A stretch of DNA of 49,614 nt from contig JACQRD010000067.1 in NCBI GenBank assembly GCA_016206675.1, forward strand, positions 1 to 49,614, written 5' to 3'. This stretch comes from Candidatus Omnitrophota bacterium. GTDB lineage: Bacteria > Omnitrophota > Gorgyraeia > Aquiviventales > Aquiviventaceae. The stretch's first letter is position 1. Each line of letters begins with the position of its first letter. The translations under genes and the position numbers were made by a program. The notes beneath the pieces were generated by a model. It was not told the origin of the DNA. It saw only the letters and a list, made by a program, of their open reading frames with translations, and did not search any database. This document shows positions 2,442 to 38,866 of the stretch, piece by piece.

Positions 2442-3635
2442 ATGGGACGTGAAGCGGTCATCGTGGACGGCGTGCGCACCCCCCAGGGCGTCTTCGGCGG
2501 GGCGCTGAAGCAGCTCACCGCGCAAGCCCTCGGTGAAGTCGCCCTGCGGGAGCTGCTCAAGCGGACGAACCTCAAAGGCGCCGATCTCGAAGAGGTGATC
2601 GTCGGCTGCGTGGGGCAGGGGTCGGACGCGCCGAATATCGCGCGCGTCATCGCGCTGAAGGCCGCCGTCCCGATCCAGACGCCGGCCTACACGGTGCAGC
2701 GCAACTGCGCCTCGGGATTGCAGTCGATCGTCAGCGCCACGCAGAACATTCTCTGCGGCGACCGGGACGTGCAGATCGCCGGCGGGGCCGAGTGCATGAG
2801 CGCGGCTCCCTATGTCAGCCGCGACTTGCGCTGGGGCAAGCGGCTGCGCCACTCGGAGATGATCGACTCGGTGTGGGAGGGGCTGACGGATCCCGTCTGC
2901 GGCCAGATCATGGGGCAGACCGCGGAGAACCTCGTCAAGGAATTCGGCATTAGCCGCGCCGACCAGGATCGATTCGCGCTGCTCTCGCACCAGCGGGCCT
3001 TCCGTGCGGCGCGGGAAAACCGGTTCAAGGACGAGCTCGTCCCGGTGCTAGTGCCGAAGCGGGCCATGGGCAAGGCGCTGCCGCCGGAGCCGTTTACGCA
3101 AGATGAAGGGATCAACCCCGGCCTGAATGAACAGCTGCTCAGCCAATATCCCGCGATCTTTCAGGAAGGCGGGTCGGTGACGTCGGGCAACGCCTGCTTC
3201 AACGCCGATGGGGCGGCGATGGTGCTGATCATGTCCCTCGACAAGGCCAAGGTGCTCGGCTACAAGCCGCTGGCCAAGGTCCGCGCCTATGCCGTCGCGG
3301 GCCTGGAGCCTGAGCGCATGGGTCTGGGCCCGACGCTGTCGGTGCCGCTGGCGCTGAAGAAGGCCGGCCTGACCCTCAAGGACATCCAGCTGATCGAGCT
3401 CAACGAAGCGTTTGCGGCGACGTTCCTCGCGTGCGAAAAGGTGCTCGGTTACAACCGGGAGATCACCAATGTCAATGGCGGCGCCATCGCGCTTGGGCAT
3501 CCGGTGGGTGCGACCGGCACGCGCCTGACAGTGACGCTGTTGCATGAAATGAAGCGGCGCAACCTCTCGCTCGGGCTGGCCACGGCCTGCATCGGCGGCG
3601 GCCAGGGCGCCACGATCATCTACGAGCGCGCCTGA
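2442..3635 (+). CDS. acetyl-CoA C-acyltransferase (thiolase)
   Basis: 397 aa. Thiolase signatures QRNCASGLQS (nucleophilic Cys), NGGAIALGHPVGATG and ACIGGGQGA near the C-terminus. Confidence 0.92.
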   Translation: MGREAVIVDGVRTPQGVFGGALKQLTAQALGEVALRELLKRTNLKGADLEEVIVGCVGQGSDAPNIARVIALKAAVPIQTPAYTVQRNCASGLQSIVSATQNILCGDRDVQIAGGAECMSAAPYVSRDLRWGKRLRHSEMIDSVWEGLTDPVCGQIMGQTAENLVKEFGISRADQDRFALLSHQRAFRAARENRFKDELVPVLVPKRAMGKALPPEPFTQDEGINPGLNEQLLSQYPAIFQEGGSVTSGNACFNADGAAMVLIMSLDKAKVLGYKPLAKVRAYAVAGLEPERMGLGPTLSVPLALKKAGLTLKDIQLIELNEAFAATFLACEKVLGYNREITNVNGGAIALGHPVGATGTRLTVTLLHEMKRRNLSLGLATACIGGGQGATIIYERA

Positions 3636-5857: not shown

Positions 5858-6865
5858 ATGCGTGCGGTGTTTTTCGAGACGGCCCCCTGGGAGCGGCGGT
5901 ACCTGACGCGGGCGCTGGCCGCCTCGCGCGCCTCGGTAAAATACGTGACCAGCCCGTTAACGGAGGAAACGTGGCGCGCCGCCGCCACAGCACAGATCCT
6001 CTCGGTGTTCATCTACTCCACGCTCACCGCCGCCGTGCTGCGCCGGCTGCCAACACTGCGCTTGATCGCCACCCGCTCCACCGGCTTCGACCACATCCAC
6101 TTGGCCACCTGCAAGAAGCGGAAGATCACCGTCTGCAACGTCCCCTCCTACGGCGAAAATACGGTGGCGGAGCATACCTTTGCGCTGATCCTCGCGCTGT
6201 CGCGCAACATCCACAAAGCCTACGTCAAGACCACCAAAGGCGACTTCTCCCTCGAGGGGCTGCAAGGCTTCGATCTGAAAGGCAAGACGCTGGGTGTCAT
6301 CGGGGCAGGCCATATCGGCTTGCATGTCATCAAAATGGCCAAGGGTTTCGGCATGGACGTGCTGGTGCACGACGTGGTGAAAAACGTCTTTCTCAGTGAA
6401 GTGCTCGACTACCGGTACGTGCCGCTGGAAACGCTCCTGCGCTCCTCGGACATCGTCAGCCTCCATACGCCGTACCTGCCCTCCACGCACCATCTCATGA
6501 ACCGGAAGACCTTCGGGCTGATGAAGCGCGGCGCCTTGCTGATCAACACGGCGCGCGGTGGCTTGGTGGACACGGACGCCCTGGTCTGGGCGCTCGATGA
6601 GGGGCTCGTCGGCGGAGCCGGGCTGGATGTGCTGGAAGGGGAAGAGCTCGTGAAGGAGGAGCGACAGCTGCTCTCGAAGGACTTCTCAAAGGAGAAGCTG
6701 GCGACGGCCCTGCGCAACCACATCCTACTGCACCGGGAGAACGTCGTGATCACCCCGCACATCGCCTTCGACAGCCGAGAGGCGCTGCAGCGCATTGTGG
6801 AGACGACGGCAGGCAACATCACCGCTTTTCTGGCGGGAGCGCCGGCCAACGTGGTGGCGGCATGA
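5858..6865 (+). CDS. D-isomer-specific 2-hydroxyacid dehydrogenase family protein
   Basis: 335 aa. NAD-binding GVIGAGHIGLHVIKMAKGFGMDV, plus LINTARGGLVD and ITPHIAF motifs. Confidence 0.88.
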   Translation: MRAVFFETAPWERRYLTRALAASRASVKYVTSPLTEETWRAAATAQILSVFIYSTLTAAVLRRLPTLRLIATRSTGFDHIHLATCKKRKITVCNVPSYGENTVAEHTFALILALSRNIHKAYVKTTKGDFSLEGLQGFDLKGKTLGVIGAGHIGLHVIKMAKGFGMDVLVHDVVKNVFLSEVLDYRYVPLETLLRSSDIVSLHTPYLPSTHHLMNRKTFGLMKRGALLINTARGGLVDTDALVWALDEGLVGGAGLDVLEGEELVKEERQLLSKDFSKEKLATALRNHILLHRENVVITPHIAFDSREALQRIVETTAGNITAFLAGAPANVVAA

Positions 6866-6993
6866 TCCCACCACCTGCTGGGTTTCGCCACCCGATGTGC
6901 CAAGAACGACTGAAGGCGAAACGGTCGCTGCTTCTTAAGTCACTTCATGGTTGCAGCGACCGGCCTTCGGCCAGCCAGCAGGTGGTGGGATGA
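6862..6993 (+). repeat. palindromic junction element E1 (ATGA + 17-bp arm ... 17-bp arm + ATGA)
   Basis: Perfect 17-bp inverted repeat: 6865-6881 ATCCCACCACCTGCTGG and 6975-6991 CCAGCAGGTGGTGGGAT. The left arm starts in stop codon TGA 6863-6865; the right arm ends in start codon ATG 6990-6992. Three internal hairpins. Confidence 0.9.
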
Positions 6994-8849
6994 CGAGCGA
7001 CCCCCACGTGCTGCTGGAGAAGGGTGCCCCCGAAGCGCTCGAAGTGACGGAGGCCGCGCGCGAGGCGGAATGGCACCATCCCAGCTTTATCGGCGAGCTG
7101 TTCATGGGGCGGCTGCGCACCGACCTGATCATCCCGTACCCGGAACAGCCGGACGAGGACCGGCAGATCGGCGACGCCTTCCTCGCCACGCTGGAAGCCT
7201 TTCTCCGGAAGCGGATCGATCCGGATGAGATCGACCGCACCGGCGAAATCCCCGCCGAGGTGCTGCAGGGGCTGGCGAAGCTGGGCTGCTTCGGCATGAA
7301 GATCCCGAAGGCGTACGGCGGGCTGGGCCTTTCCCAAACCAACTATAACCGCGCCATCTGCCTCCTTGGGAGTTATTGCGGCTCCACCACCGTCTGGTTG
7401 AGCGCCCATCAGAGCATCGGGGCACCCCAGCCGCTGATGCTCTTCGGGACGGAGGAGCAGAAGCGCAAGTACCTGCCGCGGCTGGCGCAGGGGACCATCT
7501 CCGCCTTCGCGCTGACCGAGCCCGACGTCGGCTCGGATCCGGCGAACATGCTCACCATCGCCGCGCCGACCAAGGATGGGGCGGCCTACCTGCTCACCGG
7601 GGAGAAGCTCTGGTGCACGAATGGTCCCGTCGCCGAAGTCGTCGTCGTCATGGCGCGCACTCCCTCCGTGGCCGTCGGGGGCCGCGAGCGCAAGCAGATC
7701 ACGGCCTTCATTGTGGAAAAGTCCATGCCGGGATTTGAGGTTGTCCATCGCTGCGAGTTCATGGGGTTGAAGGGCATCCAGAACGGCGTGTTGCGCTTTA
7801 CGAACATCCGGGTGCCGAAGGAAAACATCCTGTGGGGCCCGGGCCTGGGATTGAAACTCGCCCTCGTCACGCTCAACGCCGGCCGCATCGCCATCCCGGC
7901 CGGCTGCGTGGGCACCGCCAAGCGCTGCCTGCAGAGTACGCGCGCGTGGGCCAAGGAGCGCAAGCAGTGGGGCGGGCCGATCGGCAAGCACGAAGCGGTG
8001 GCGGTCAAAATCGGCGACATGGCCGCGACAACCATCGCGATGGACGCCATGGTGTGGCTGGCCTCAGCGATGGTGGACCGCAAGACCACGGACATCCGGC
8101 TTGAAGCGGCGATGGCCAAGCTCTTCTGCTCGGAGGCCTGCTGGCGCATCGTCGATGACACCGTGCAGATCCGTGGCGGCCGCGGCTACGAGACGGCCCG
8201 GTCGCTGCGCGCGCGGGGCGAGGCCGCACTGCCGGTTGAGCGCATCATGCGGGACAGCCGGATCAACCTCATCATCGAAGGCACGAGCGACATCATGCGG
8301 CTGTTCATCGCCCGCGAGGCGCTCGATGCCCACATGCGCGCCGTCGCCGATCTGCTCAACCCCCGCACGCCGCCGCCAGCCAAAGCCAAGACCGCGCTGG
8401 CCGCCGCGCTGCGCTATGCCCTGTGGTATCCGCAGCAGTGGCTCTCCTGGAGCGGCTGGCCCAAACACCAGGCGCTGGGGCCCCGATTGGGAGGGCATCT
8501 GCGCTTCATTGAGCGCACCAGCCACCGCCTGGCCCTGGCACTCTTCCACGCCGCCATGCGGCATCAGATGCGGCTGGCCTACCGGCAGCAACTGCTGGGC
8601 CGACTGGTCGATATCGGCGGCGACCTCTTCGCGATGGCGGCGGCGTGCGCGAAGGCGCACGCCATGGTCCGGCTGCAACCCTCGGAGCAGAGTCCGGTAG
8701 AGCTGGCGGATTTGTTTTGCCGCCTGGCGAAACGGCGGATCGCGCTGGCATTTGCGCAGCTGCACCGCAACGATGACCGCACCTCTTACCGGATGGCGCA
8801 AGATGTGCTCAATGGCCGCATGGCATGGCTTGAAGAAGGGATCGTCTAG
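6990..8849 (+). CDS. acyl-CoA dehydrogenase family protein with long C-terminal extension
   Basis: ATG 6990 (MTSDPHVLLEKG) is preceded by AGGTGGTGGG. ACAD core (FALTEPDVGSDPANM, RFTNIRVPKENILWG, QIRGGRGYE) plus about 200 extra C-terminal residues. Track start 6951 lies inside element E1. Confidence 0.88.
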   Translation: MTSDPHVLLEKGAPEALEVTEAAREAEWHHPSFIGELFMGRLRTDLIIPYPEQPDEDRQIGDAFLATLEAFLRKRIDPDEIDRTGEIPAEVLQGLAKLGCFGMKIPKAYGGLGLSQTNYNRAICLLGSYCGSTTVWLSAHQSIGAPQPLMLFGTEEQKRKYLPRLAQGTISAFALTEPDVGSDPANMLTIAAPTKDGAAYLLTGEKLWCTNGPVAEVVVVMARTPSVAVGGRERKQITAFIVEKSMPGFEVVHRCEFMGLKGIQNGVLRFTNIRVPKENILWGPGLGLKLALVTLNAGRIAIPAGCVGTAKRCLQSTRAWAKERKQWGGPIGKHEAVAVKIGDMAATTIAMDAMVWLASAMVDRKTTDIRLEAAMAKLFCSEACWRIVDDTVQIRGGRGYETARSLRARGEAALPVERIMRDSRINLIIEGTSDIMRLFIAREALDAHMRAVADLLNPRTPPPAKAKTALAAALRYALWYPQQWLSWSGWPKHQALGPRLGGHLRFIERTSHRLALALFHAAMRHQMRLAYRQQLLGRLVDIGGDLFAMAAACAKAHAMVRLQPSEQSPVELADLFCRLAKRRIALAFAQLHRNDDRTSYRMAQDVLNGRMAWLEEGIV

Positions 8850-8853
8850 CCCG

Positions 8854-10646
<1,793 letters not shown>

Positions 10647-10650
<4 letters not shown>

Positions 10651-12692
10651 GCGATGTCATTGAAGGCGTGTGGGACGCGCCGTCGATCGGGCAGCGGATC
10701 AGCTACCGCCTGTGGAAGCCGCCGCAGGCGCGCAGCACGCTGGTCATCATCCACGGCTTCGGCGAACATGGCGGACGGTATGCCGACGTCGCAGACGCCC
10801 TGGCAGCGGAAGGGTTGTGCGTCGCCGCGCCGGATCTCTGCGGGCATGGCCGTTCCTCCGGCGCGCGGGGAGACATCGGGGACATCCCCTCGTGCGTGGA
10901 CGCGCTGGAAGCTCTGACGCGTCAGGTGCTTCTGCCGCAGACAGGACATCAGCAGTACGCCCTCTTCGGCCACAGCTTCGGCGGCTTGGCCGCCATCTGG
11001 TGGGCGATGAGCCAGCCGGCCGGCCTGCGCCGGCTGATCGTCCAGTCGCCCCTGCTGGAGACGGCCTTCACTATCCCCGCATGGAAGAAGCGGCTCTCGC
11101 GCCTGGTCATGGCGTGCTGGCCGGCCTTCGGCCTCTCCATGAATTTGGAGACGAGCGCGCTCAGCCATGACCCTGCCGTGGTGGACGCCTACCGCCAGGA
11201 TCCGCTGGTGCACAATACCATGAGTGCCCGATGTTATTGGTCGCTCATCCGAACCCGCGACGAAGCGCAGGCGCACCCGGAGCGGGTGCGCGTGCCGACG
11301 CTGCTGCTCTATGGCACGGCCGACCGGATCGTCTCCACCGCGGTGGCGCAACGGTGGTTCGATCAGCTGGCGTGCGACAAGCAATGCGTCGTCTTTCCGG
11401 ACGCGTACCACGAGCTCCATCACGAGCCGGTCCGTCCCGAGGTGCTGCGGCGCATCGCCGCCTGGTCGCTTGCGGCGGTGATGGCCCTTGCGCTGGCCTC
11501 TTCCGCGGTGGCCGAGCCGCCGCCGGCGACGGAAGAGACGGATTGGCCGACGGTGATCGCCCGCCTGCAACAGGAGGTGCAGCAACGCCCCGGCTTAGCG
11601 CACACCCGCCAGCAGCTGGCGATTGCGTACAACAACTACGGTGTGGTCCTCGGCAATGAGGGGCAGTGGGAGCAGGCCGTCCGGCAGCTTCAAGAAGCCG
11701 TGCAGCTTGATCCGGCCAACACGCAGGCGAAGGAGAATCTCAGCCGCATCTACCTCAACCGGGCGCATGAGGCCTACCAGCAGCGCAGGTTTCCGGATGC
11801 CCTGTCAGCCATCGAACTGGCCCTGCAGGCCAACCCGGAGCTGGCCCAGGCCTACGCCCTGCGGGGGGAGCTGGAGTACAACCAGCAGAAGCTCAAGGAA
11901 GCCAAGGCCTCCTGGGAGCAGGCGTTGAAGCTCGACCCCTCACAGCCCGAGATCGGCAAGCGGCTGGAACAGGTCACGCAGGAGCTGCCGGTCGAATCGG
12001 ACTTTGAGCGGGTATCGCAGGCCTCCTTTGACATCCGCTATCAAGAAGGGCTCGAAAGCGCCATCGGCTTCGATGTCCGCGATGTGCTGTTGCAGGCTCG
12101 GCGGGAAGTCGGCTCCGACTTCGCCTATTGGCCGAAGCACCGGCTGGTCGTCCTCGTTTACAGCGCGGAGAGCTTCAAGCAGCTGCGGCAGGAAACGCCG
12201 GAATGGCTCGCCGGACAGTTCGACGGCAAAATCCGCGTGCCGCTGCCCAGCAAGCAGCTGAATCCTCAGACGGTCAAAGCGATTCTGTTCCACGAGTACA
12301 CCCATGCGCTCATCTACGATTTGACCAATGGCACGTGCCCCATCTGGCTGAATGAGGGCCTGGCTGAATACGAAGGCCGGCGGCAGGCGCCTGGACCAAT
12401 GGCGCCATTGCGGCAGGCCCAGATGGACAGCCGGCTGACGCCGTGGAAGGACCTATCGGACGGCTTCTCGCCCGCGCTGACGGCTGAAGCGGTATCGTTA
12501 GCTTATCAGCAGTCGTACAGCATCGCCGCTTATCTAGTTGAGCGATACGGCTTTTGGCGCATTCGCCGCATCCTCAAGGTGATCGGAGAAGGCAAGGCGT
12601 GGGAAACCGCCCTGTCGGATGAGTTCCGCCTGAAGCTCAAGACGATCGAAGGCAACTGGCAGGCGTGGCTGCCGGAGTTTCTCCGCCGATGA
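10647..12692 (+). CDS. alpha/beta hydrolase (lysophospholipase-like) + hydrophobic segment + TPR repeats + HExxH peptidase-like domain, single ORF
   Basis: 681 aa. HGFGEHGGRY and GHSFGG nucleophile elbow. Hydrophobic AAWSLAAVMALALASSAVA (nt 11457-11510). TPR-like repeats. C-terminal FHEYTHAL...NEGLAEY. The ATG overlaps the upstream stop (ATGA). Confidence 0.75.
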
Positions 12693-12823
12693 TCCCCCCA
12701 CCTGCTGGAGGCGTTGCTCCAATAGACTTTCATGCTCAGCAACGCCTTAAATGTGCCAGAGGGATTACTGACATTGCCACATTCCGGTCCGCCGCTGGCG
12801 GACCCCGGCAGGTGGGGGGATGA
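12689..12823 (+). repeat. palindromic junction element E2
   Basis: Arms 12692-12708 ATCCCCCCACCTGCTGG and 12805-12821 CCGGCAGGTGGGGGGAT give 16 Watson-Crick pairs plus one T/G position. Left ATGA 12689-12692 holds the stop; right ATGA 12820-12823 holds the PolX start. Confidence 0.9.
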
Positions 12824-14550
12824 AGCAACACGAGATCGCCGCGCTGTTTGCCAAGATGGCGGATCTGCTGGAATTCCAGGGGGAAAACGTCTTCCGCATC
12901 CGGGCGTACCGCCGGGCGGCGCAGAACCTTGAGAGCTTCAGCGGGGATCTTGACCAGCTGGCCGCCGCCGGAACACTACAAGAACTCTCAGGCATCGGCG
13001 CTGACCTGGCAGCCAAAATCCAGGAGTACCTGACGACGGGACGGATTGCCGCCATTGAGCAGCTGACCCGCTCGATGCCAAAAGGCGCGCTGGAGATGAT
13101 GGAGATTCCCGGCGTCGGCCCTAAGACGGCCAAGCAGCTCTCTCAGCAGCGCCGCATTGCCTCGGTTGCCCAGCTGGAGGCGGCGGCCCGCGCCGGCCAG
13201 CTGAAAGGCCTACCGGGCTTTCAGCAGAAGAAGGAGCAGAACATCCTCAAGGGGATCGAGATCGTCAAGCGCGGCCAGGCCCGCATGCACTTAGGTCTAG
13301 CCTGGCCTCTGGCACAGGAGATTGCGCGCTTCCTCGAGAAGGTGCCGGGTGTTTCGCGCGTCTCGCCCGCCGGCAGCCTGCGCCGCATGAAGGAAACCAT
13401 CGGCGACCTGGATCTGCTGGCCGCCGCCGCCAAGCCGCTGAAGGTCATGGACGCCCTGCGCGCAGCACCCTTCTGCGCCAGGGTGCTCGTCTCGGGCGAG
13501 ACGAAAACCTCCATCATCACCACCGGCGGCATCCAGGTGGACGTGCGCGTGGTGAAGCCCGACAGTTTCGGGGCAGCGCTGCAGTATTTCACCGGCTCCA
13601 AGGAGCACAACGTCCGCCTGCGGGAGTTGGCTGCCAAGCAGGGCCTAAAAATCAACGAGTACGGCGTCTTCTCGCTCAAGACTGGACGAAAGATGACCGG
13701 CAGGGAAGAGGAGGACGTCTACAAGGCGGTGGGGCTGCGGTGGATGCCGCCTGAGCTGCGGGAGGACCGCGGCGAGCTCGACGCCGCACGCACGGACGCG
13801 CTGCCGCAGCTGGTGGAGGCCAATCACCTGCGGGGAGATTTCCACATCCACACGAACTGGTCCGACGGCAGCGATTCGCTGCCTGAGGTGGTCCGGGCCG
13901 GCGAACAGATGGGTTACGACTACATCGCCATCTGCGACCACTCCCAGTCGTTGAAGGTGGCCCATGGCATGACGGTTGAGCGCCTGCGGCAGCAGATGAA
14001 GGAGATCCGGCAGCTCAACGCCCGCAGTAGATCGTTTCGGGTGTTGATGGGCGCTGAGGTGGACATCCTCAACGAAGGCCGCATGGACTATCCCGATGAG
14101 GTGCTCGCCGAGCTGGATTTCGTCGTCGGCTCCATCCATTCGGGCTTTACGCAGAGCGAAGCGGCCCTCACGAAACGGATGATCACCGCCATGCGTAACC
14201 CCTACGTCACCTTGATCGCACACCCGACGGGCCGCTTGATGGGCCAGCGGGAGCCGTACGCGATCGACCTGGAAGCCGTCTTCCGCGCGGCGAAGGAGAC
14301 CGGCACCGCCATGGAGATCAACGCCTATCCTCAGCGGCTGGATCTCTGCGATACCGCAGCCCATCGGGCAGGGGAACTCGGCATCATGCTGGCGATTTCC
14401 ACCGATACCCATGGCCTCGACCAGTATCAGAACATCACCTACGGCCTGGGCGTAGCCCGCCGGGCCTGGCTGACCAAGCGGCAGTTGCTCAATTGCTTCT
14501 CTCTGAAAGAGCTGTTGTCCTGGATCGGCAAGAAACGCCGGCGGGCATGA
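12820..14550 (+). CDS. polX: DNA polymerase X family protein with C-terminal PHP domain
   Basis: 576 aa. HhH PolX N-terminus (FRIRAYRRAAQNL, IPGVGPKTAKQL), GSLRRMKETIGDLDLL, PHP motif DFHIHTNWSDG. Confidence 0.9.
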   Translation: MKQHEIAALFAKMADLLEFQGENVFRIRAYRRAAQNLESFSGDLDQLAAAGTLQELSGIGADLAAKIQEYLTTGRIAAIEQLTRSMPKGALEMMEIPGVGPKTAKQLSQQRRIASVAQLEAAARAGQLKGLPGFQQKKEQNILKGIEIVKRGQARMHLGLAWPLAQEIARFLEKVPGVSRVSPAGSLRRMKETIGDLDLLAAAAKPLKVMDALRAAPFCARVLVSGETKTSIITTGGIQVDVRVVKPDSFGAALQYFTGSKEHNVRLRELAAKQGLKINEYGVFSLKTGRKMTGREEEDVYKAVGLRWMPPELREDRGELDAARTDALPQLVEANHLRGDFHIHTNWSDGSDSLPEVVRAGEQMGYDYIAICDHSQSLKVAHGMTVERLRQQMKEIRQLNARSRSFRVLMGAEVDILNEGRMDYPDEVLAELDFVVGSIHSGFTQSEAALTKRMITAMRNPYVTLIAHPTGRLMGQREPYAIDLEAVFRAAKETGTAMEINAYPQRLDLCDTAAHRAGELGIMLAISTDTHGLDQYQNITYGLGVARRAWLTKRQLLNCFSLKELLSWIGKKRRRA

Positions 14551-14690
14551 TCCCACCACCTGCGCCGGCTTGCCTCCGGCAAGCCAGGAAGCCACGGCGA
14601 GCAGATTATATCCTTTGGGCCTGTGGCTTCCGCACGGCGCCTCAGGGCGCAAAACCCAGAGAACGCCGTAAGGCGCAGGTGGTGGGATGA
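14547..14690 (+). repeat. palindromic junction element E3 (interior apparently flipped relative to E1/E2)
   Basis: Perfect 17-bp arms 14550-14566 ATCCCACCACCTGCGCC and 14672-14688 GGCGCAGGTGGTGGGAT. Left ATGA 14547-14550 holds the PolX stop; right ATGA 14687-14690 holds the era start. Confidence 0.9.
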
Positions 14691-15613
14691 GCAGCGCCGC
14701 CCCGGCCGGCTTCCGCTGCGGCTATGTGAGCCTCATCGGGCGGCCCAACGTGGGCAAGTCGACCATCCTCAACGCGCTGCTGGGGGAGAAGGTGGCGATC
14801 ATCTCTCCGAAGCCACAGACGACCCGGCAGCGGATTCTCGGCGTGCTGACTCGTCCTGAGGCCCAGGTGATGTTTCTCGATACGCCGGGGCTGCACAAGC
14901 CGGAGCACACATTAGGCCGCTACATGGTCGAGGTGGCCAAGGCCGCCATTGAAGAAGCGGACGTGCTGGTCGTGATCATCGACGGGCGCGCGGGCATCAC
15001 GGCGGAGGATGAGCGGGTGTTCTCCTCCGTCAAGAACGCCCTGCGCGAGGATGGGCGCAAGCGGCCGGTCCTGCTGGCCATCAACAAGGTGGACATCGCC
15101 AGCAAACCGAAACTCCTGCCGCTGCTGGAGCGCTGTGCCAAGCTGGGCATCTTCGATGACTGCATTCCGATTTCGGCGACGACGGGCGACCAGCTCAAGA
15201 TTCTCCTGAAGGAGATCGTCGCGCGCCTGCCGGAGGGGCCCCGCTGGTATGAGCCGCAACAGCGCACCGACCAGACGCGCGAGCAGATGGTCTCGGAGCT
15301 CATCCGCGAGCAGGTGCTCGCCGCCACGCGGCAGGAGGTGCCCCATGCCGTCGCCGTGCTGATCGACGAGCTCGAAGACCGGGATAAGGTGACCTCCATC
15401 CGGGCCACGATCCTGGTTGAGCGCGATGGGCAGAAGGCCATTGTGATCGGCCGGGGCGGAATGATGCTCAAGCAGATCGGGCAGGAGGCGCGCCGGCAGC
15501 TGGAGCGGCTGCTGGGCCGCAAGGTCTTCTTGGGGCTCTGGGTGAAGGTCGCCGAAGGCTGGCGCAGTGATGAACGCATCCTGCGCCAGCTGGGCTACCT
15601 CTCCGGATCGTGA
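14687..15613 (+). CDS. era: GTPase Era
   Basis: 308 aa. G1 GRPNVGKST, G3 DTPG, G4 NKVD, C-terminal KH domain (VERDGQKAIVIGRGGMMLKQIG). Confidence 0.93.
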   Translation: MSSAAPAGFRCGYVSLIGRPNVGKSTILNALLGEKVAIISPKPQTTRQRILGVLTRPEAQVMFLDTPGLHKPEHTLGRYMVEVAKAAIEEADVLVVIIDGRAGITAEDERVFSSVKNALREDGRKRPVLLAINKVDIASKPKLLPLLERCAKLGIFDDCIPISATTGDQLKILLKEIVARLPEGPRWYEPQQRTDQTREQMVSELIREQVLAATRQEVPHAVAVLIDELEDRDKVTSIRATILVERDGQKAIVIGRGGMMLKQIGQEARRQLERLLGRKVFLGLWVKVAEGWRSDERILRQLGYLSGS

Positions 15614-26330: not shown

Positions 26331-26404
26331 TGCCCCAGCGCCGATTCGAACGGCGGACACGCGGTTTAGGAAACCGCTGCTCTTCCATACTGAGCTACTG
26401 GGGC
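26331..26404 (-). tRNA. tRNA-Arg (anticodon CCU)
   Basis: The reverse complement folds as a 74-nt cloverleaf: acceptor GCCCCAG/CTGGGGC, D arm GCTC-AGTATGGAA-GAGC, anticodon arm GCGGT-TTCCTAA-ACCGC, variable GTGTC, T arm CGCCG-TTCGAAT-CGGCG, discriminator A. No encoded CCA. Followed by CTTTTT. Confidence 0.93.
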
Positions 26405-30117: not shown

Positions 30118-32258
30118 GAGGGCTCCTGTTGTAAGACGGTAAGTTTCGAGAGGTCGGCAACCCGGTCAGTATACAACGCATGGATTGCGCGCATCAAGGC
30201 GAGCCGGTTGCGTTGCAGCGCCTCGTCGGGCACGTTGACCAGCACCTTGTCGAAGAACGTGTGCAGCGGCTCATAGAAGAGCTCTCCGAATTCTAGCGTG
30301 GCTTTGTCGTACAGGCGGTCGGTGATGAGCTTCGCGACCCGCTCCTTATGCTGATCGTACAACCGCCACAGTGCCTGCTCCGGCGGCTCCTTCAGCAGTT
30401 GCGGCTGCACCTGGCCGTCCGCACGCTTGGCCCCTTTGAGGATGTTGCGCGTGCGCTCGATGACCTTCGCGGCCTTCAGCAGCCCGGCCTGGCCGCTCAT
30501 CCGCTGGAGGGTGCGGATGCGGTCCATGGCATCGATCATATCTTCCCATGGACAGGCCAGCACAGCGTCAATACAGTCCGATGAAGGGGCCGGGGATGGC
30601 CAGTTGAAGGTGTAGAGTCTTTCTGCAAGGTAGCTGCGAACACGCTGTTGTACCTTCGCATCAGGTGGCTTTCCAGCAGCCGCCGACCATGCGTTGAACA
30701 GATTCTCAAACAACAGCGGTCGATGCGCAGCCCATGCCACTTCTATGATTCCTTGCGCGGCACGCCGAAGACCAAAAGGATCCTGATCTCCTGTCGGTTC
30801 GATGCCGATGCTAAAGTAACTCGCGAAGGTATCAAATTTGTCCAGGCTAGCTAGTGCAGAACCAATGAGGGTCTTGGGCATCTTACCAGCAAGTGGCAGG
30901 TAGTGCTCCTCGATTGCTTGACACACGGCGTCAGATTCACGATGGATTCTGGCGTAGTATTTCCCCATCACACCCTGCAAAGTCGGAAACTCCCTGACCA
31001 TAACGCTACCAAGGTCAGCCTTGGCAAGCTGGCTGGCCCGTTCAAGCTCTTTGGACTCTTGATTCGTCAGGTTCCACATCTTGCTAAGGTTTCTGCTCAT
31101 CTGGCAGAGGCGGTTGACCTTGTCCTGCACAGAGCCCAACTTTTCGTGGAAGGTGATTCCGGCAGCCTTGACGGCAAGCACGTTTAGTTGCTGTTTAGTG
31201 TCCTGCTCCCAGAACAACAAGCTATCCGCCAGGCGGGCGTTGAGGATACGCTCCACCACCGTGCGCACCTCCGACGGCTTGCCGGGCTTGCCGTCCAGGA
31301 TGGCGACGCAGCGCGGCAGCAGCTTCCCGTTGGCCTCAATGGCGAAAACGCGCTGGTGCTTGGCCATGCTGGCCAGCAGCACTTCGCGCGGCAGGACCAG
31401 ATAGCGCTTATCGAATTCGCCGACCAACGGCACCGGCTCTTCCGTCAAGAAGGTCACTTCCTCCAGCAGGCCGTGGCTGATCATCTCCGCCGCCGTGGTG
31501 CCGCGGAAGGCCTTGGCGGTTTTGGCCACCAGGCTGTCAATGACGGCGCGCCGCTGGCTTGGATCGAGGATCACCCCGACGCGCTTCAGCAGCTTGAAGT
31601 AGGATTCAATGGAGGAAACCGTCGCCCAGCGCAACTGCTGCGGCCGTCCCACGCGTGTCTTAGATTGGCCGGCGATCAAACCGAAGCGGCACGAAACCGC
31701 CTGCGCGCCATAGCGGGCCAGCAGCCAACGGATGGGCCGGGCGAAGCGCACGCCGCTGGCCTCCCAGCGCATACTCTTCGGCGCGCGCAGCTTTGTGATA
31801 AGCTGCGGCAGCAGGGCCGGCAGCAGCTTGACGGTCGGGGTGGTCGTGGGCGGCTTCATGAGGTAGACGTAGTCGCCCTTCGGCGTTGAGACGACTTTGG
31901 TGTGGCGGATGTCTCCGCCTTGCGACTTGAGGAAACCGAGCAGGGCCGGCGTGGGCTTGCCGGAGGCGTCGTAGGAGGCCTGCTTCGAGGGGCCGCGCAC
32001 CTCCTCGCCGGGCTGCTGTTGCACCGCGGAGAGCCCGCGCACGTGTAGCACCAACCGGCGCGGCGTGCCGTACGTCGCTGCCGAGTGGAACGCCAGGTGG
32101 TTGGCTTCACACAGCGTCTTGGCTTCCCGGTCGAGCTGTTCAATCAGCCCAGGCAGGTACGCCGCCGGCAGCTCCTCCGTCCCGATTTCAAAGAGAAGAT
32201 CAGCTGACCGCGAAGCTGGAGGTTGGAGGCTGGAGGCGGGAATGGATTTCTTTTTCAT
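30114..32258 (-). CDS. glyS: glycine--tRNA ligase beta subunit
   Basis: 714 aa. [12 protein letters not shown] near the N-terminus. The first ~20 codons ([18 protein letters not shown]) are read from a heptamer repeat arm. Confidence 0.9.
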
Positions 32259-32287
32259 CCAACTTCCAGCTGCTTGCTTCCAGCTTC
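32212..32287 (-). repeat. heptamer-array hairpin, GAAGCTG family, copy 1, spanning the glyQ stop / glyS start
   Basis: Plus strand: GAAGCTG GAGGTTG GAGGCTG GAGGCGG ... CCAACTT CCAGCTG CTTGCTT CCAGCTTC. Best hand register is 32212-32226 with 32259-32273 (15 nt, 2 mismatches). ATGA 32255-32258 lies at the loop edge. Confidence 0.8.
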
Positions 32288-33132: not shown

Positions 33133-33909
33133 CTAGACCCGAGACCCGTGACTCGCGACCCGAGTCTCGGGTCTCGAGTCTCGAGTCCACCCAGCTAATG
33201 TCTTTAGCGGTCTATCCAGGCGCCAACGCAGGAACTCATCCAGCCGGCGGCGCAATCCTGGCAGCGCGTGAGCATCCAGGGCGATGGGCTGATCGCTCTC
33301 CGAGAGCCGCTCCAAGGTTTCCAACGTGCTGTGCAGCACCGGTTCGGCCTTCGGATCCTCGTGCAGACAGTTGGCGCACAGCAATCCGCCCTGCTGCGCG
33401 CTCCAGTAGCCGGCGTGATGCACCATCGCGCCACACCCGGTGCACTCATCCACCTGCGGCTGAAAGCCGGCCAGCCGCAGAAACCGCACGATGAAATGGG
33501 TCCGGATCATCGCGGGGTCGGATCCGGCCACGGCCAGATGCTCCAGCGCCGACTTCAGCAGCCGGTAGACCGCCGGCTGCGGCTCATTCAGCGGGACGAC
33601 CGTATCCACCAGATCGACGCACAGCGCAGCGCTGCGGGCGACCTCCAGTTCCTGCTGCAGTGCCGCCAGCGGAGCCAGCAGCTCGCATTGGCTGATGAGA
33701 TGGAGCTGGCTGGTGTGCGTGTCGTAGAAGACGATGCGGTTGACCGTCATCGGCTCCATGGCGCTGCGATGGCGGTTCGGCAGCTGGCGCAACCCCTTGA
33801 TGAGCCCTTTCAGCTTGCCGTAGCGGTCCGTCAGGCAGCTGACTACGACGCTGGTTTCACGGTAGAAATACCGGCGCAGGACGATGGCATCTGCTGCATG
33901 AATGCCCAT
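33133..33909 (-). CDS. recO: DNA repair protein RecO
   Basis: ATG 33909 gives [27 protein letters not shown]. Cys cluster CTGCG...CANC. The C-terminal ~17 residues are encoded by a repeat. Confidence 0.85.
33135..33188 (-). repeat. heptamer-array hairpin, GACCCGA/GTCTCGA family, copy 1
   Basis: AGACCCGAGACCCGTGACTCGCGACCCGAGTCTCGGGTCTCGAGTCTCGAGTCC with a perfect central hairpin GACCCGA-gtc-TCGGGTC. About 95% identical to 33914-33967. Confidence 0.85.
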
Positions 33910-35395: not shown

Positions 35396-35472
35396 GAAGC
35401 TGGACGTTGGAAGCTAGAAGCTGGAACAAGCCATGCGTTCTTTCCAGCTTCCAGCCTCCTGCTTCCAGCTTC
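35396..35472 (-). repeat. heptamer-array hairpin, GAAGCTG family, copy 2
   Basis: GGAAGCT GGACGTT GGAAGCT AGAAGCT GGAAC ... TTCCAGC TTCCAGC CTCCTGC TTCCAGC TTC. Both ends are homologous to 32212-32287. Confidence 0.8.
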
Positions 35473-38790: not shown

Positions 38791-38866
38791 ATTGCGGATT
38801 GCGGAATGCGGATTGCGGATTTGGAAAGCCGAAAATCCGAACTCCGCAATCCGAAATCCGCAATTA
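38791..38866 (-). repeat. heptamer-array hairpin (ATTGCGG units ... TCCGCAA units)
   Basis: ATTGCGG ATTGCGG AATGCGG ATTGCGG ATTTGGA aagccgaaaa TCCGAAC TCCGCAA TCCGAAA TCCGCAA TT, lying between the HU stop and the hisS start. Confidence 0.85.

Follow-up and report, generated by a model that had tools for sequence, protein, structure and literature searches.

Element E2, a hairpin-forming unit at positions 12689-12823 of the window, was examined here; the window is the whole analysed stretch, a 49,614-bp contig of a Candidatus Omnitrophica metagenome-assembled genome (MAG). Comparison with related genomes showed that E2 is an insertion in the 4-nt ATGA overlap between a peptidase gene and the DNA polymerase X gene (polX), with the target repeated on both sides. 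Comparison with other copies of the element showed that the frame from the left ATG stays open, either ending at the right TGA when the length is a multiple of three (3n) or entering the next gene when the length is 3n+1. We consider it likely that E2 is a non-autonomous foldback element of Omnitrophota, similar to a miniature inverted-repeat transposable element (MITE), which inserted at an ATGA stop/start overlap and is kept there through a short open reading frame (mini-ORF) that would relay ribosomes from one gene to the next.

Empty and occupied ATGA junctions

A first-pass annotation of the window had placed an ATGA on each side of E2, the left one holding the TGA of the upstream gene and the right one the ATG of PolX, and both were found again here. 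Most of the empty sites were provided by three relatives with the same gene order (loci L119, L120 and L121; PolX about 72% identical), and the flanks of the empty sites could be aligned to the window on either side of the element. At the junction between the upstream gene and polX, a single ATGA was present in L119, L120, L121, L177 and L179, and the site was occupied in the window (E2) and in L178 (E1 subfamily; E1 and E3 are the sister copies of E2 in the window). The polX/era junction was empty in L119 (ATGA), L120 (GTGA) and L178 (GTGA), with a plain 4-nt overlap in L119 and L120, and occupied in the window by E3. At the 2-Hacid_dh/ACAD junction, which is occupied in the window by E1, an ATGA overlap was found in L120, and the upstream stop lay a few nt before the ATGA start in L119 and L121. 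Since L178 carries an E1-type element at the site where the window carries E2, independent insertions had occurred at one junction. The MAG CAYJWN01 has elements elsewhere (L006, L059) and none at its polX junctions, and the window keeps at least three unoccupied ATGA overlaps.

The flanking tetranucleotide was found to be copied from the target. An intergenic copy in L090 had ACGA on both flanks, hence the flank is a duplicated target and not element sequence. The left start codons were ATG, GTG (3 copies) or TTG (1 copy) and the right start was always ATG. A right ATGA despite a left GTGA or TTGA fits a 3-bp duplication of TGA by an element that ends in A (TCCC...GGGA), and we infer that the duplication comprises the 3 bp TGA, with the last A of the element rebuilding ATG. 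Runs resembling a Shine-Dalgarno (SD) sequence preceded the left ATG where the upstream gene stops a few bases earlier (e.g. gaggagctcgATGA, acaggagtcccATGA), which identifies the left ATG as the original start codon of the downstream gene.

Two differences in gene content were observed around the polX junction. In L120 (8811-10004) and L121 (8805-10004), the peptidase gene and polX are separated by an MFS transporter gene, which is absent in the window and L119; thus the upstream neighbour of polX differs among genomes with the ATGA overlap kept. In addition, Hydrolase_4 and TPR-Peptidase_MA_2 form a single ORF of 681 aa in the window (10647-12692) and two genes in L119 (4-nt overlap) and L121 (8-nt overlap), so a former overlap junction may have become a gene fusion in the window.

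Reading-frame constraint

A total of 36 copies of 60-165 nt were curated from more than 20 MAGs or contigs, several copies sharing a MAG, and element length was counted for each of them from its left ATG through its right TGA. The window copies measured 132, 135 and 144 nt and all were open up to the stop, reading MIPPPAGF...QQVVG (E1), MIPPPAGG...RQVGG (E2) and MIPPPAPA...AQVVG (E3). The E2 frame, from ATG12689 to TGA12823, has 45 codons including the stop and had been overlooked in the first-pass annotation. The length classes 3n, 3n+1 and 3n+2 were represented by 32, 4 and 0 copies, respectively (chi-square p=1e-11). Frame 0 contained 2 stops in 1353 codons compared to 28 and 38 in the remaining sense frames (Fisher p=8e-10 for frame 0 vs these two) and 23-36 in the antisense frames. 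All four 3n+1 copies read through ...A-G-G-G-M and joined the frame of the next gene with no intervening stop. Five further copies, among them short remnants of 30 and 45 nt in tandem arrays, were also 3n, and a 3-nt deletion in one arm preserved the frame. The sole 3n+2 copy, which is outside the 36, was the intergenic one, where the constraint is not expected.

The mini-ORF peptides showed no conservation beyond what the termini dictate, and variants in the arms were often non-synonymous (P>S, P>L, I>T); therefore, the frame is selected and not the protein. Genuine small protein genes coupled to their neighbours, forming a MIPPP...QVVG peptide family in which palindromy is incidental, would agree with the open frames, the 3n lengths and the conserved N- and C-terminal residues. 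This explanation is nevertheless highly improbable, as the interior has no amino-acid conservation, the arm variants alter residues, one unit found in both orientations codes for unrelated peptides, orthologous junctions occur without the unit and none of the six peptides tested was present in a collection of 15 billion proteins. Moreover, each conserved end is the reverse complement of the other, which places the conservation in the nucleic acid.

A copy was also found inside uvrA in L090 (JACQRE010000070.1, about 3464-3552, minus strand). It forms an in-frame insertion of about 31 residues (LIPPPAAQPKGLRSLRERAATGGATGGGTVT) that falls between positions three residues apart in solved UvrA structures (9ga5, 3zqj).

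The element family

An exact-pattern scan with one genome per species showed paired arms in about 30 loci. The element-bearing MAGs were mostly labelled as Omnitrophota, with some Planctomycetales, Elusimicrobia and unclassified labels. A search blind to arm sequence (NTGA and ATGA separated by 40-260 nt and enclosing arms complementary at 11 or more of 13 bases) produced 38 matches in 277 kb of element-bearing loci versus 4 in 2.1 Mb of other DNA, and one of those 4 was a genuine copy (L178). Among 80 metagenome loci anchored on PolX, most of them distant relatives, the element was found in L178 alone. Viral contigs gave 55 single-arm matches with no pair less than 400 bp apart and no true element. 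Within the window, the 14-nt arm motif occurred 8 times (6 exact) against 1.17 expected, and none of 100 shuffles reached 8.

The outer 13 nt of each arm were nearly invariant among the 36 copies (TCCCACCACCTG...CAGGTGGTGGGA), and at the 4 pairs inside these termini the sequence varied freely with complementarity kept. The interior could not be aligned across subfamilies and folded into 1-4 hairpins, with 3 hairpins in 21 of the 36 copies. Interior G+C content (36-84%) tracked that of the host (45-70%; rho 0.68, p=4e-6) with the termini unchanged. Several related copies were present per genome (3 in the window, at least 5 in MAG JACQRE01), and the nearest relative of a copy was often within the same MAG. 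Opposite orientations occurred within a subfamily: L007 matches the reverse complement of L100 from the same MAG, and E1 that of L082:3191.

Other arrangements of the element were also recorded. Tandem arrays of elements with shared ATGA were found in L066 (3826-4107), L047 (1790-1930) and L009 (4609-4859), including remnants of 30 and 45 nt that are still 3n mini-ORFs. An orphan left arm without a right arm in L094 (1313-1440) forms an N-terminal extension (MIPPPVASGATRDEQPM...) of an apparent ribosomal protein S17 and probably represents a degenerate copy that has become part of this gene. A candidate in L040 (2600-2798) with apparently symmetric ATGA...TCAT flanks was excluded; its flanks mirror each other for over 30 nt where a short contig ends, so that the palindrome most likely seeded a foldback artefact during assembly. 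Finally, the MAG CAYJWN01 (L120, L006, L059), labelled as an uncultured Planctomycetales, shares more than 20 kb of synteny with the Omnitrophica window and has a PolX that is 72% identical. The Planctomycetales labels are doubtful for this reason, and the taxonomic label of CAYJWN01, and probably those of other element-bearing ERP125453/binchicken MAGs, looks wrong.

Structure of E2 and strand symmetry

The features of E2 and of its surroundings are as in Table 1. The arms (left ATCCCCCCACCTGCTGG, right CCGGCAGGTGGGGGGAT) are 17 nt long with a spacing of 96 nt and are complementary at 16 of 17 positions (94%), and the wobble between T12706 and G12807 described in the first-pass annotation was confirmed as their sole non-Watson-Crick position. 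The arms of E1 (6865-6881/6975-6991) are 100% complementary. Relative to E1, the left arm of E2 has an A>C and the right arm a T>G change, and the two changed bases pair with each other. The double-sided change that had been described as compensatory is thus present, but it belongs to a two-state polymorphism of the family (AU in 29 copies, CG in 6) and is not private to the window; within the mini-ORF it is synonymous (CCA>CCC). All three inner hairpins that had been predicted were present in the minimum free energy (MFE) fold of E2. The MFE of the sense strand was -75.9 kcal/mol (z -7.2; equalled by none of 200 shuffles) and that of the antisense strand -75.4 kcal/mol.

Table 1. Positions of E2, its parts, the adjoining genes and the sister copies in the window.
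Feature	Position	Strand	Remarks
E2 with both flanking ATGA, equal to a mini-ORF of 44 codons plus stop (MIPPPAGGVAPIDFHAQQRLKCARGITDIATFRSAAGGPRQVGG, then stop)	12689..12823	+	Length 135 = 3n, no stop inside
Left ATGA; TGA ends the hydrolase-TPR-peptidase gene, ATG is the original PolX start and now the mini-ORF start	12689..12692	+	Empty sites in L119, L120 and L121 with a single ATGA
Left arm of closing stem; first 13 nt are the family-invariant terminus; would code for I-P-P-P-A-G	12692..12708	+	
Inner hairpin 1; 10 bp, 19-nt loop (pairs 12709-12718/12738-12747)	12709..12747	+	Fold
Inner hairpin 2; AATGTG/CACATT (12750-12755/12778-12783), weak	12750..12783	+	Fold
Inner hairpin 3; 8 bp, G+C-rich, GCT triloop (12786-12793/12797-12804)	12786..12804	+	Fold
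Right arm of closing stem; last bases are the A and T of the PolX ATG	12805..12821	+	
Right ATGA; PolX ATG and mini-ORF TGA; TGA is the duplicated target, A probably from the element	12820..12823	+	
Upstream gene, Hydrolase_4 + TPR + Peptidase_MA_2, 681 aa	10647..12692	+	Domain matches
Downstream gene, DNA polymerase X, 576 aa	12820..14550	+	
E1, sister copy between 2-Hacid_dh and acyl-CoA dehydrogenase genes; mini-ORF of 43 codons	6862..6993	+	
E3, sister copy between PolX and Era GTPase genes; mini-ORF of 47 codons	14547..14690	+	

Pairing was kept amid sequence change, as had been proposed from E1 and E2. Over the 36 copies, the closing stem (18 pairs) was 92.4% paired and showed double-sided changes at 8 of the 18 pairs (70 cells). 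Its covariation score was 0.259 compared to 0.087 in shuffles, none of 500 reaching the observed value, and 0.04-0.12 with the partner slid. Compensatory changes were also found at 10 of 37 pairs in the inner hairpins of the E1 subfamily.

The further claim of the first-pass annotation, that pairing of the sense transcript and not DNA palindromy is the selected trait, was not supported by the 36 copies, which showed no strand asymmetry. It failed the comparison of G.U with C.A positions by strand that had been set as its test: the closing stem contained 8 G.U and 11 A.C cells in the sense orientation. The number of G.U pairs in MFE folds was 69 for the sense and 74 for the antisense strand, and the mean sense-minus-antisense energy was 0.01 kcal/mol, with the sense strand better in 20 copies and the antisense in 16 (Wilcoxon p=0.99). 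GNRA and UNCG loops were not enriched (1 vs 1 of 19), and the loops were mostly triloops that occur as reverse-complement pairs (GAA/TTC, GCA/TGC). The stem variants of L058 and L060 in sense orientation were single-sided (C.A and U.G). One G.U and one compensatory pair cannot separate selection at the RNA level from DNA palindromy; the population of copies points to DNA palindromy, and the demonstrable selection acts on the reading frame and not on wobble pairs.

These results bear on whether E2 is a host regulatory RNA, in which selected pairing of the sense transcript would join the upstream stop to the downstream start or mask the start and so enforce coupling. The very stable fold, the covarying stem, the burial of the right arm and the polX AUG in that stem, the location of all junction copies inside co-oriented gene chains, and the lack of an intrinsic terminator (G+C hairpin and T run) or a promoter (-35/-10 hexamers) within E2 are in line with such a role. 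It is unlikely all the same, given the strand symmetry reported above, the occurrence of a single subfamily in both orientations, the patchy occupancy of orthologous junctions with different subfamilies at one junction, and the copies in an intergenic spacer and inside uvrA. A purely structural role also leaves unexplained why the termini are invariant in sequence across hosts of 45-70% G+C. As a speculation, the right arm could act as an SD sequence and the left arm as an anti-SD mimic (AGGUGGUG vs AGGAGGUG), a reading weakened by a central U.U mismatch. A self-cleaving ribozyme, a tRNA-like cloverleaf, translational bypass and a terminator were rejected as identities, since no conserved unpaired nucleotides, Rfam match or T run were found.

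Mobility of the element

A transposase that binds the conserved termini would move the element. Termini that are invariant across hosts of very different G+C content argue for a sequence-specific enzyme, and the two orientations together with the target duplication argue for a DDE-type transposase over a single-strand mechanism of the IS200/IS605 type. That the inner hairpins are perfect hints at a role of folding in propagation. The only arm-like pair at a greater distance (L127/L136, 2651 bp apart) was rejected as a chance match, as it lies inside a phage tail-fibre-like ORF.

Alternatively, E2 could move as a single-stranded DNA (ssDNA) hairpin through an HUH enzyme of the IS200/IS605 or REP-RAYT type, or could be a folded attC-like recombination site, with ATGA as the cleavage or crossover tetranucleotide. 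The entire element indeed folds as ssDNA (-42.6 kcal/mol, z -7.9), pairing is preserved throughout and beyond the tips, the loops are mostly 3 nt and strand-symmetric, and the same tetranucleotide stands at both feet of the stem. We give this mechanism little chance, however: both orientations were found whereas IS200/IS605 insertion is strand-specific, the ACGA on both sides of the intergenic copy shows that the flank derives from the target site and is no part of the element, the terminal inverted repeats are long and perfect and stand in place of subterminal hairpins, and neither GTAG (REP) or GTTRRRY/RYYYAAC (attC) cores nor extrahelical bases were found.

Proposed translational relay

For a frame-keeping mobile element, the following mechanism is proposed. 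The insertion would leave the upstream stop and the original start codon in place, where they would now open a mini-ORF of 19-54 codons driven by that start codon and its ribosome-binding site, and the last base of the element together with the duplicated TGA would restore an ATGA on the other side. On completing the upstream gene, a ribosome would re-initiate at the left AUGA, melt the structure of about -76 kcal/mol, terminate at the right AUGA and re-initiate on polX, so that coupling is relayed across 131 inserted bases. Termination-reinitiation coupling was reported to require overlaps or very short distances (PMC6728339, PMC10666635); an untranslated, folded spacer of 131 nt should therefore break coupling, and a relay ORF would keep it. 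Copies that break the relay would be purged by selection, which would explain the restriction of junction copies to stop-free units of 3n or 3n+1. Such a relay through an inserted structured mini-ORF is suggested by the sequence data. In the absence of a passing ribosome, the 17-bp stem would bury the polX start and thereby make polX translation strictly dependent on upstream translation. Start masking, the function favoured in the first-pass annotation, may thus be a real consequence, yet the trait for which the sequence statistics reveal selection is a different one.

Several points weigh against this reading. The loci were ascertained by an exact 16-nt match to one arm including TGA, which biases the sample to conserved arms and TGA flanks; the search pattern left free the A before the left TGA, the length class, the openness of the frame and the orientation. 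An internal stop interrupts two of the 3n copies (L009:2469 and, 9 nt from its end, L088), the mini-ORFs are not called by gene callers, and we infer their translation from sequence statistics alone. A 3-bp duplication and a 4-bp duplication followed by mutation are not separable with certainty. The conserved perfect inner hairpins are unexplained by a simple model of terminal repeats and transposase, no autonomous element or long unit with these termini was found in the 2.4 Mb of DNA scanned, and no transposase was found among the 30 window ORFs scanned, all of whose family matches were housekeeping genes.

A more far-reaching version, in which the elements are portable translational gates, is improbable. 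Here the stem would abolish independent downstream initiation, the M-I-P-P-P start would need elongation factor P (EF-P), expression would be tied to upstream translation and EF-P, and the mover would recognise TGA stops that overlap starts. The M-I-P-P-P start could add EF-P dependence; its PPP follows from the conserved nucleotides. The right arms of the three window copies (12805-12815, 6975-6985 and 14672-14682) also contain GCAGGTGG, which is identical to the Escherichia coli Chi site (GCTGGTGG) at 7 of 8 positions and occurs on both strands because the arms are inverted repeats. It is a possibility that the arms double as recombination signals through this octamer.

If the relay is true, E2 represents a mobile element that survives by translational transparency, rebuilding both signals and providing an open frame that continues the hand-over of ribosomes. 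The family would then be a natural replicated experiment with dozens of independent insertions confined to 3n and 3n+1, and would bear on the dependence of bacteria on ATGA termination-reinitiation, otherwise mostly tested with reporters.

Comparison with known systems

The family shares with MITEs terminal inverted repeats (13 invariant and about 4 variable paired nt in the 36 copies), target duplication relative to the empty sites (L119, L120, L121, L177 and L179), small size (60-165 nt), no transposase gene and several copies per genome. A cognate autonomous IS with the same ends, a further feature of MITEs, was not found in the 2.4 Mb scanned. The MITEs of Neisseria (Correia) and of enterobacteria (ERIC) are likewise short (about 60-165 bp) with terminal inverted repeats, a short target duplication and many copies per genome, and are non-coding in the usual sense, located inside transcription units and predicted to form long hairpins (PMC10969869). 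The Omnitrophota element differs from them in its unrelated termini, in a duplication of TGA/ATGA and not TA, and in copies that are nearly always on stop/start overlaps or start codons. Its interior is unconserved yet always forms hairpins, and its length and frame are constrained like those of a coding sequence. No MITE is described as tied to start or stop codons in the MITE review (PMC10969869), in which neither term occurs.

Rickettsia palindromic elements (RPEs; PMC10969869) are similar as translated palindromic repeats tolerated through frame-keeping, to which the uvrA copy and the 3n+1 N-terminal extensions correspond. RPEs sit inside ORFs and encode a conserved peptide, whereas the Omnitrophota peptide is unconserved and most copies form a separate mini-ORF between two genes with an ATGA overlap on each side. 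The host phylum is also different, and RPEs are set apart here by their description and not by sequence comparison. With regard to ATGA termination-reinitiation coupling, the empty sites are classic ATGA overlaps and the occupied sites rebuild two of them in series; no description of a relay via an inserted structured mini-ORF was found in the coupling literature searched.

REP and REPIN sequences have a conserved GTAG head and occur as doublets of inverted REPs. The Omnitrophota family resembles the REP/BIME/REPIN group (RAYT-mobilised) in being palindromic intergenic repeats in operons with structure conserved above sequence. It differs from REP/REPIN in having no GTAG head (the arms start with TCCCACC), arms that are not palindromic themselves, a target duplication and both orientations, and no RAYT gene was seen in a search that was not exhaustive. 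Elements derived from IS200/IS605 have no terminal inverted repeats but subterminal hairpins, and insert strand-specifically 3' of a fixed tetranucleotide without duplication; the present family, unlike such palindrome-associated elements, has perfect terminal repeats, both orientations and a flank copied from a target other than ATGA. In integron attC sites, the cores are RYYYAAC ... GTTRRRY and the folded strand has extrahelical bases, whereas the ends here are ATCCCMCC/GGKGGGAT, the closing stem is perfect in most copies and the flanking genes are syntenic housekeeping genes. Overall, no repeat family tied to ATGA overlaps or frame-constrained in this way was found in the literature searched, the coverage of which was incomplete.

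Other observations

The 60-165-nt units are unannotated in Omnitrophota MAGs and shift apparent intergenic distances. They also create N-terminal extensions and in-frame insertions (uvrA) and can cause foldback assembly artefacts.

At the gathering score, the sole Rfam match of the whole window was a tRNA gene (26331-26404, minus strand, 61 bits), and the region 6800-14800 had no match at E≤1. A distinct kind of hairpin, with arms of tandem heptamers (ATTGCGG, GAAGCTG, GAGACCC), was found at positions 38791-38864, 35396-35472, 32212-32287 and 33135-33181 of the window. Two of these hairpins lie between co-oriented minus-strand genes, another spans the ATGA junction of glyQ and glyS, and one falls where the recO and glyQ ORFs overlap.

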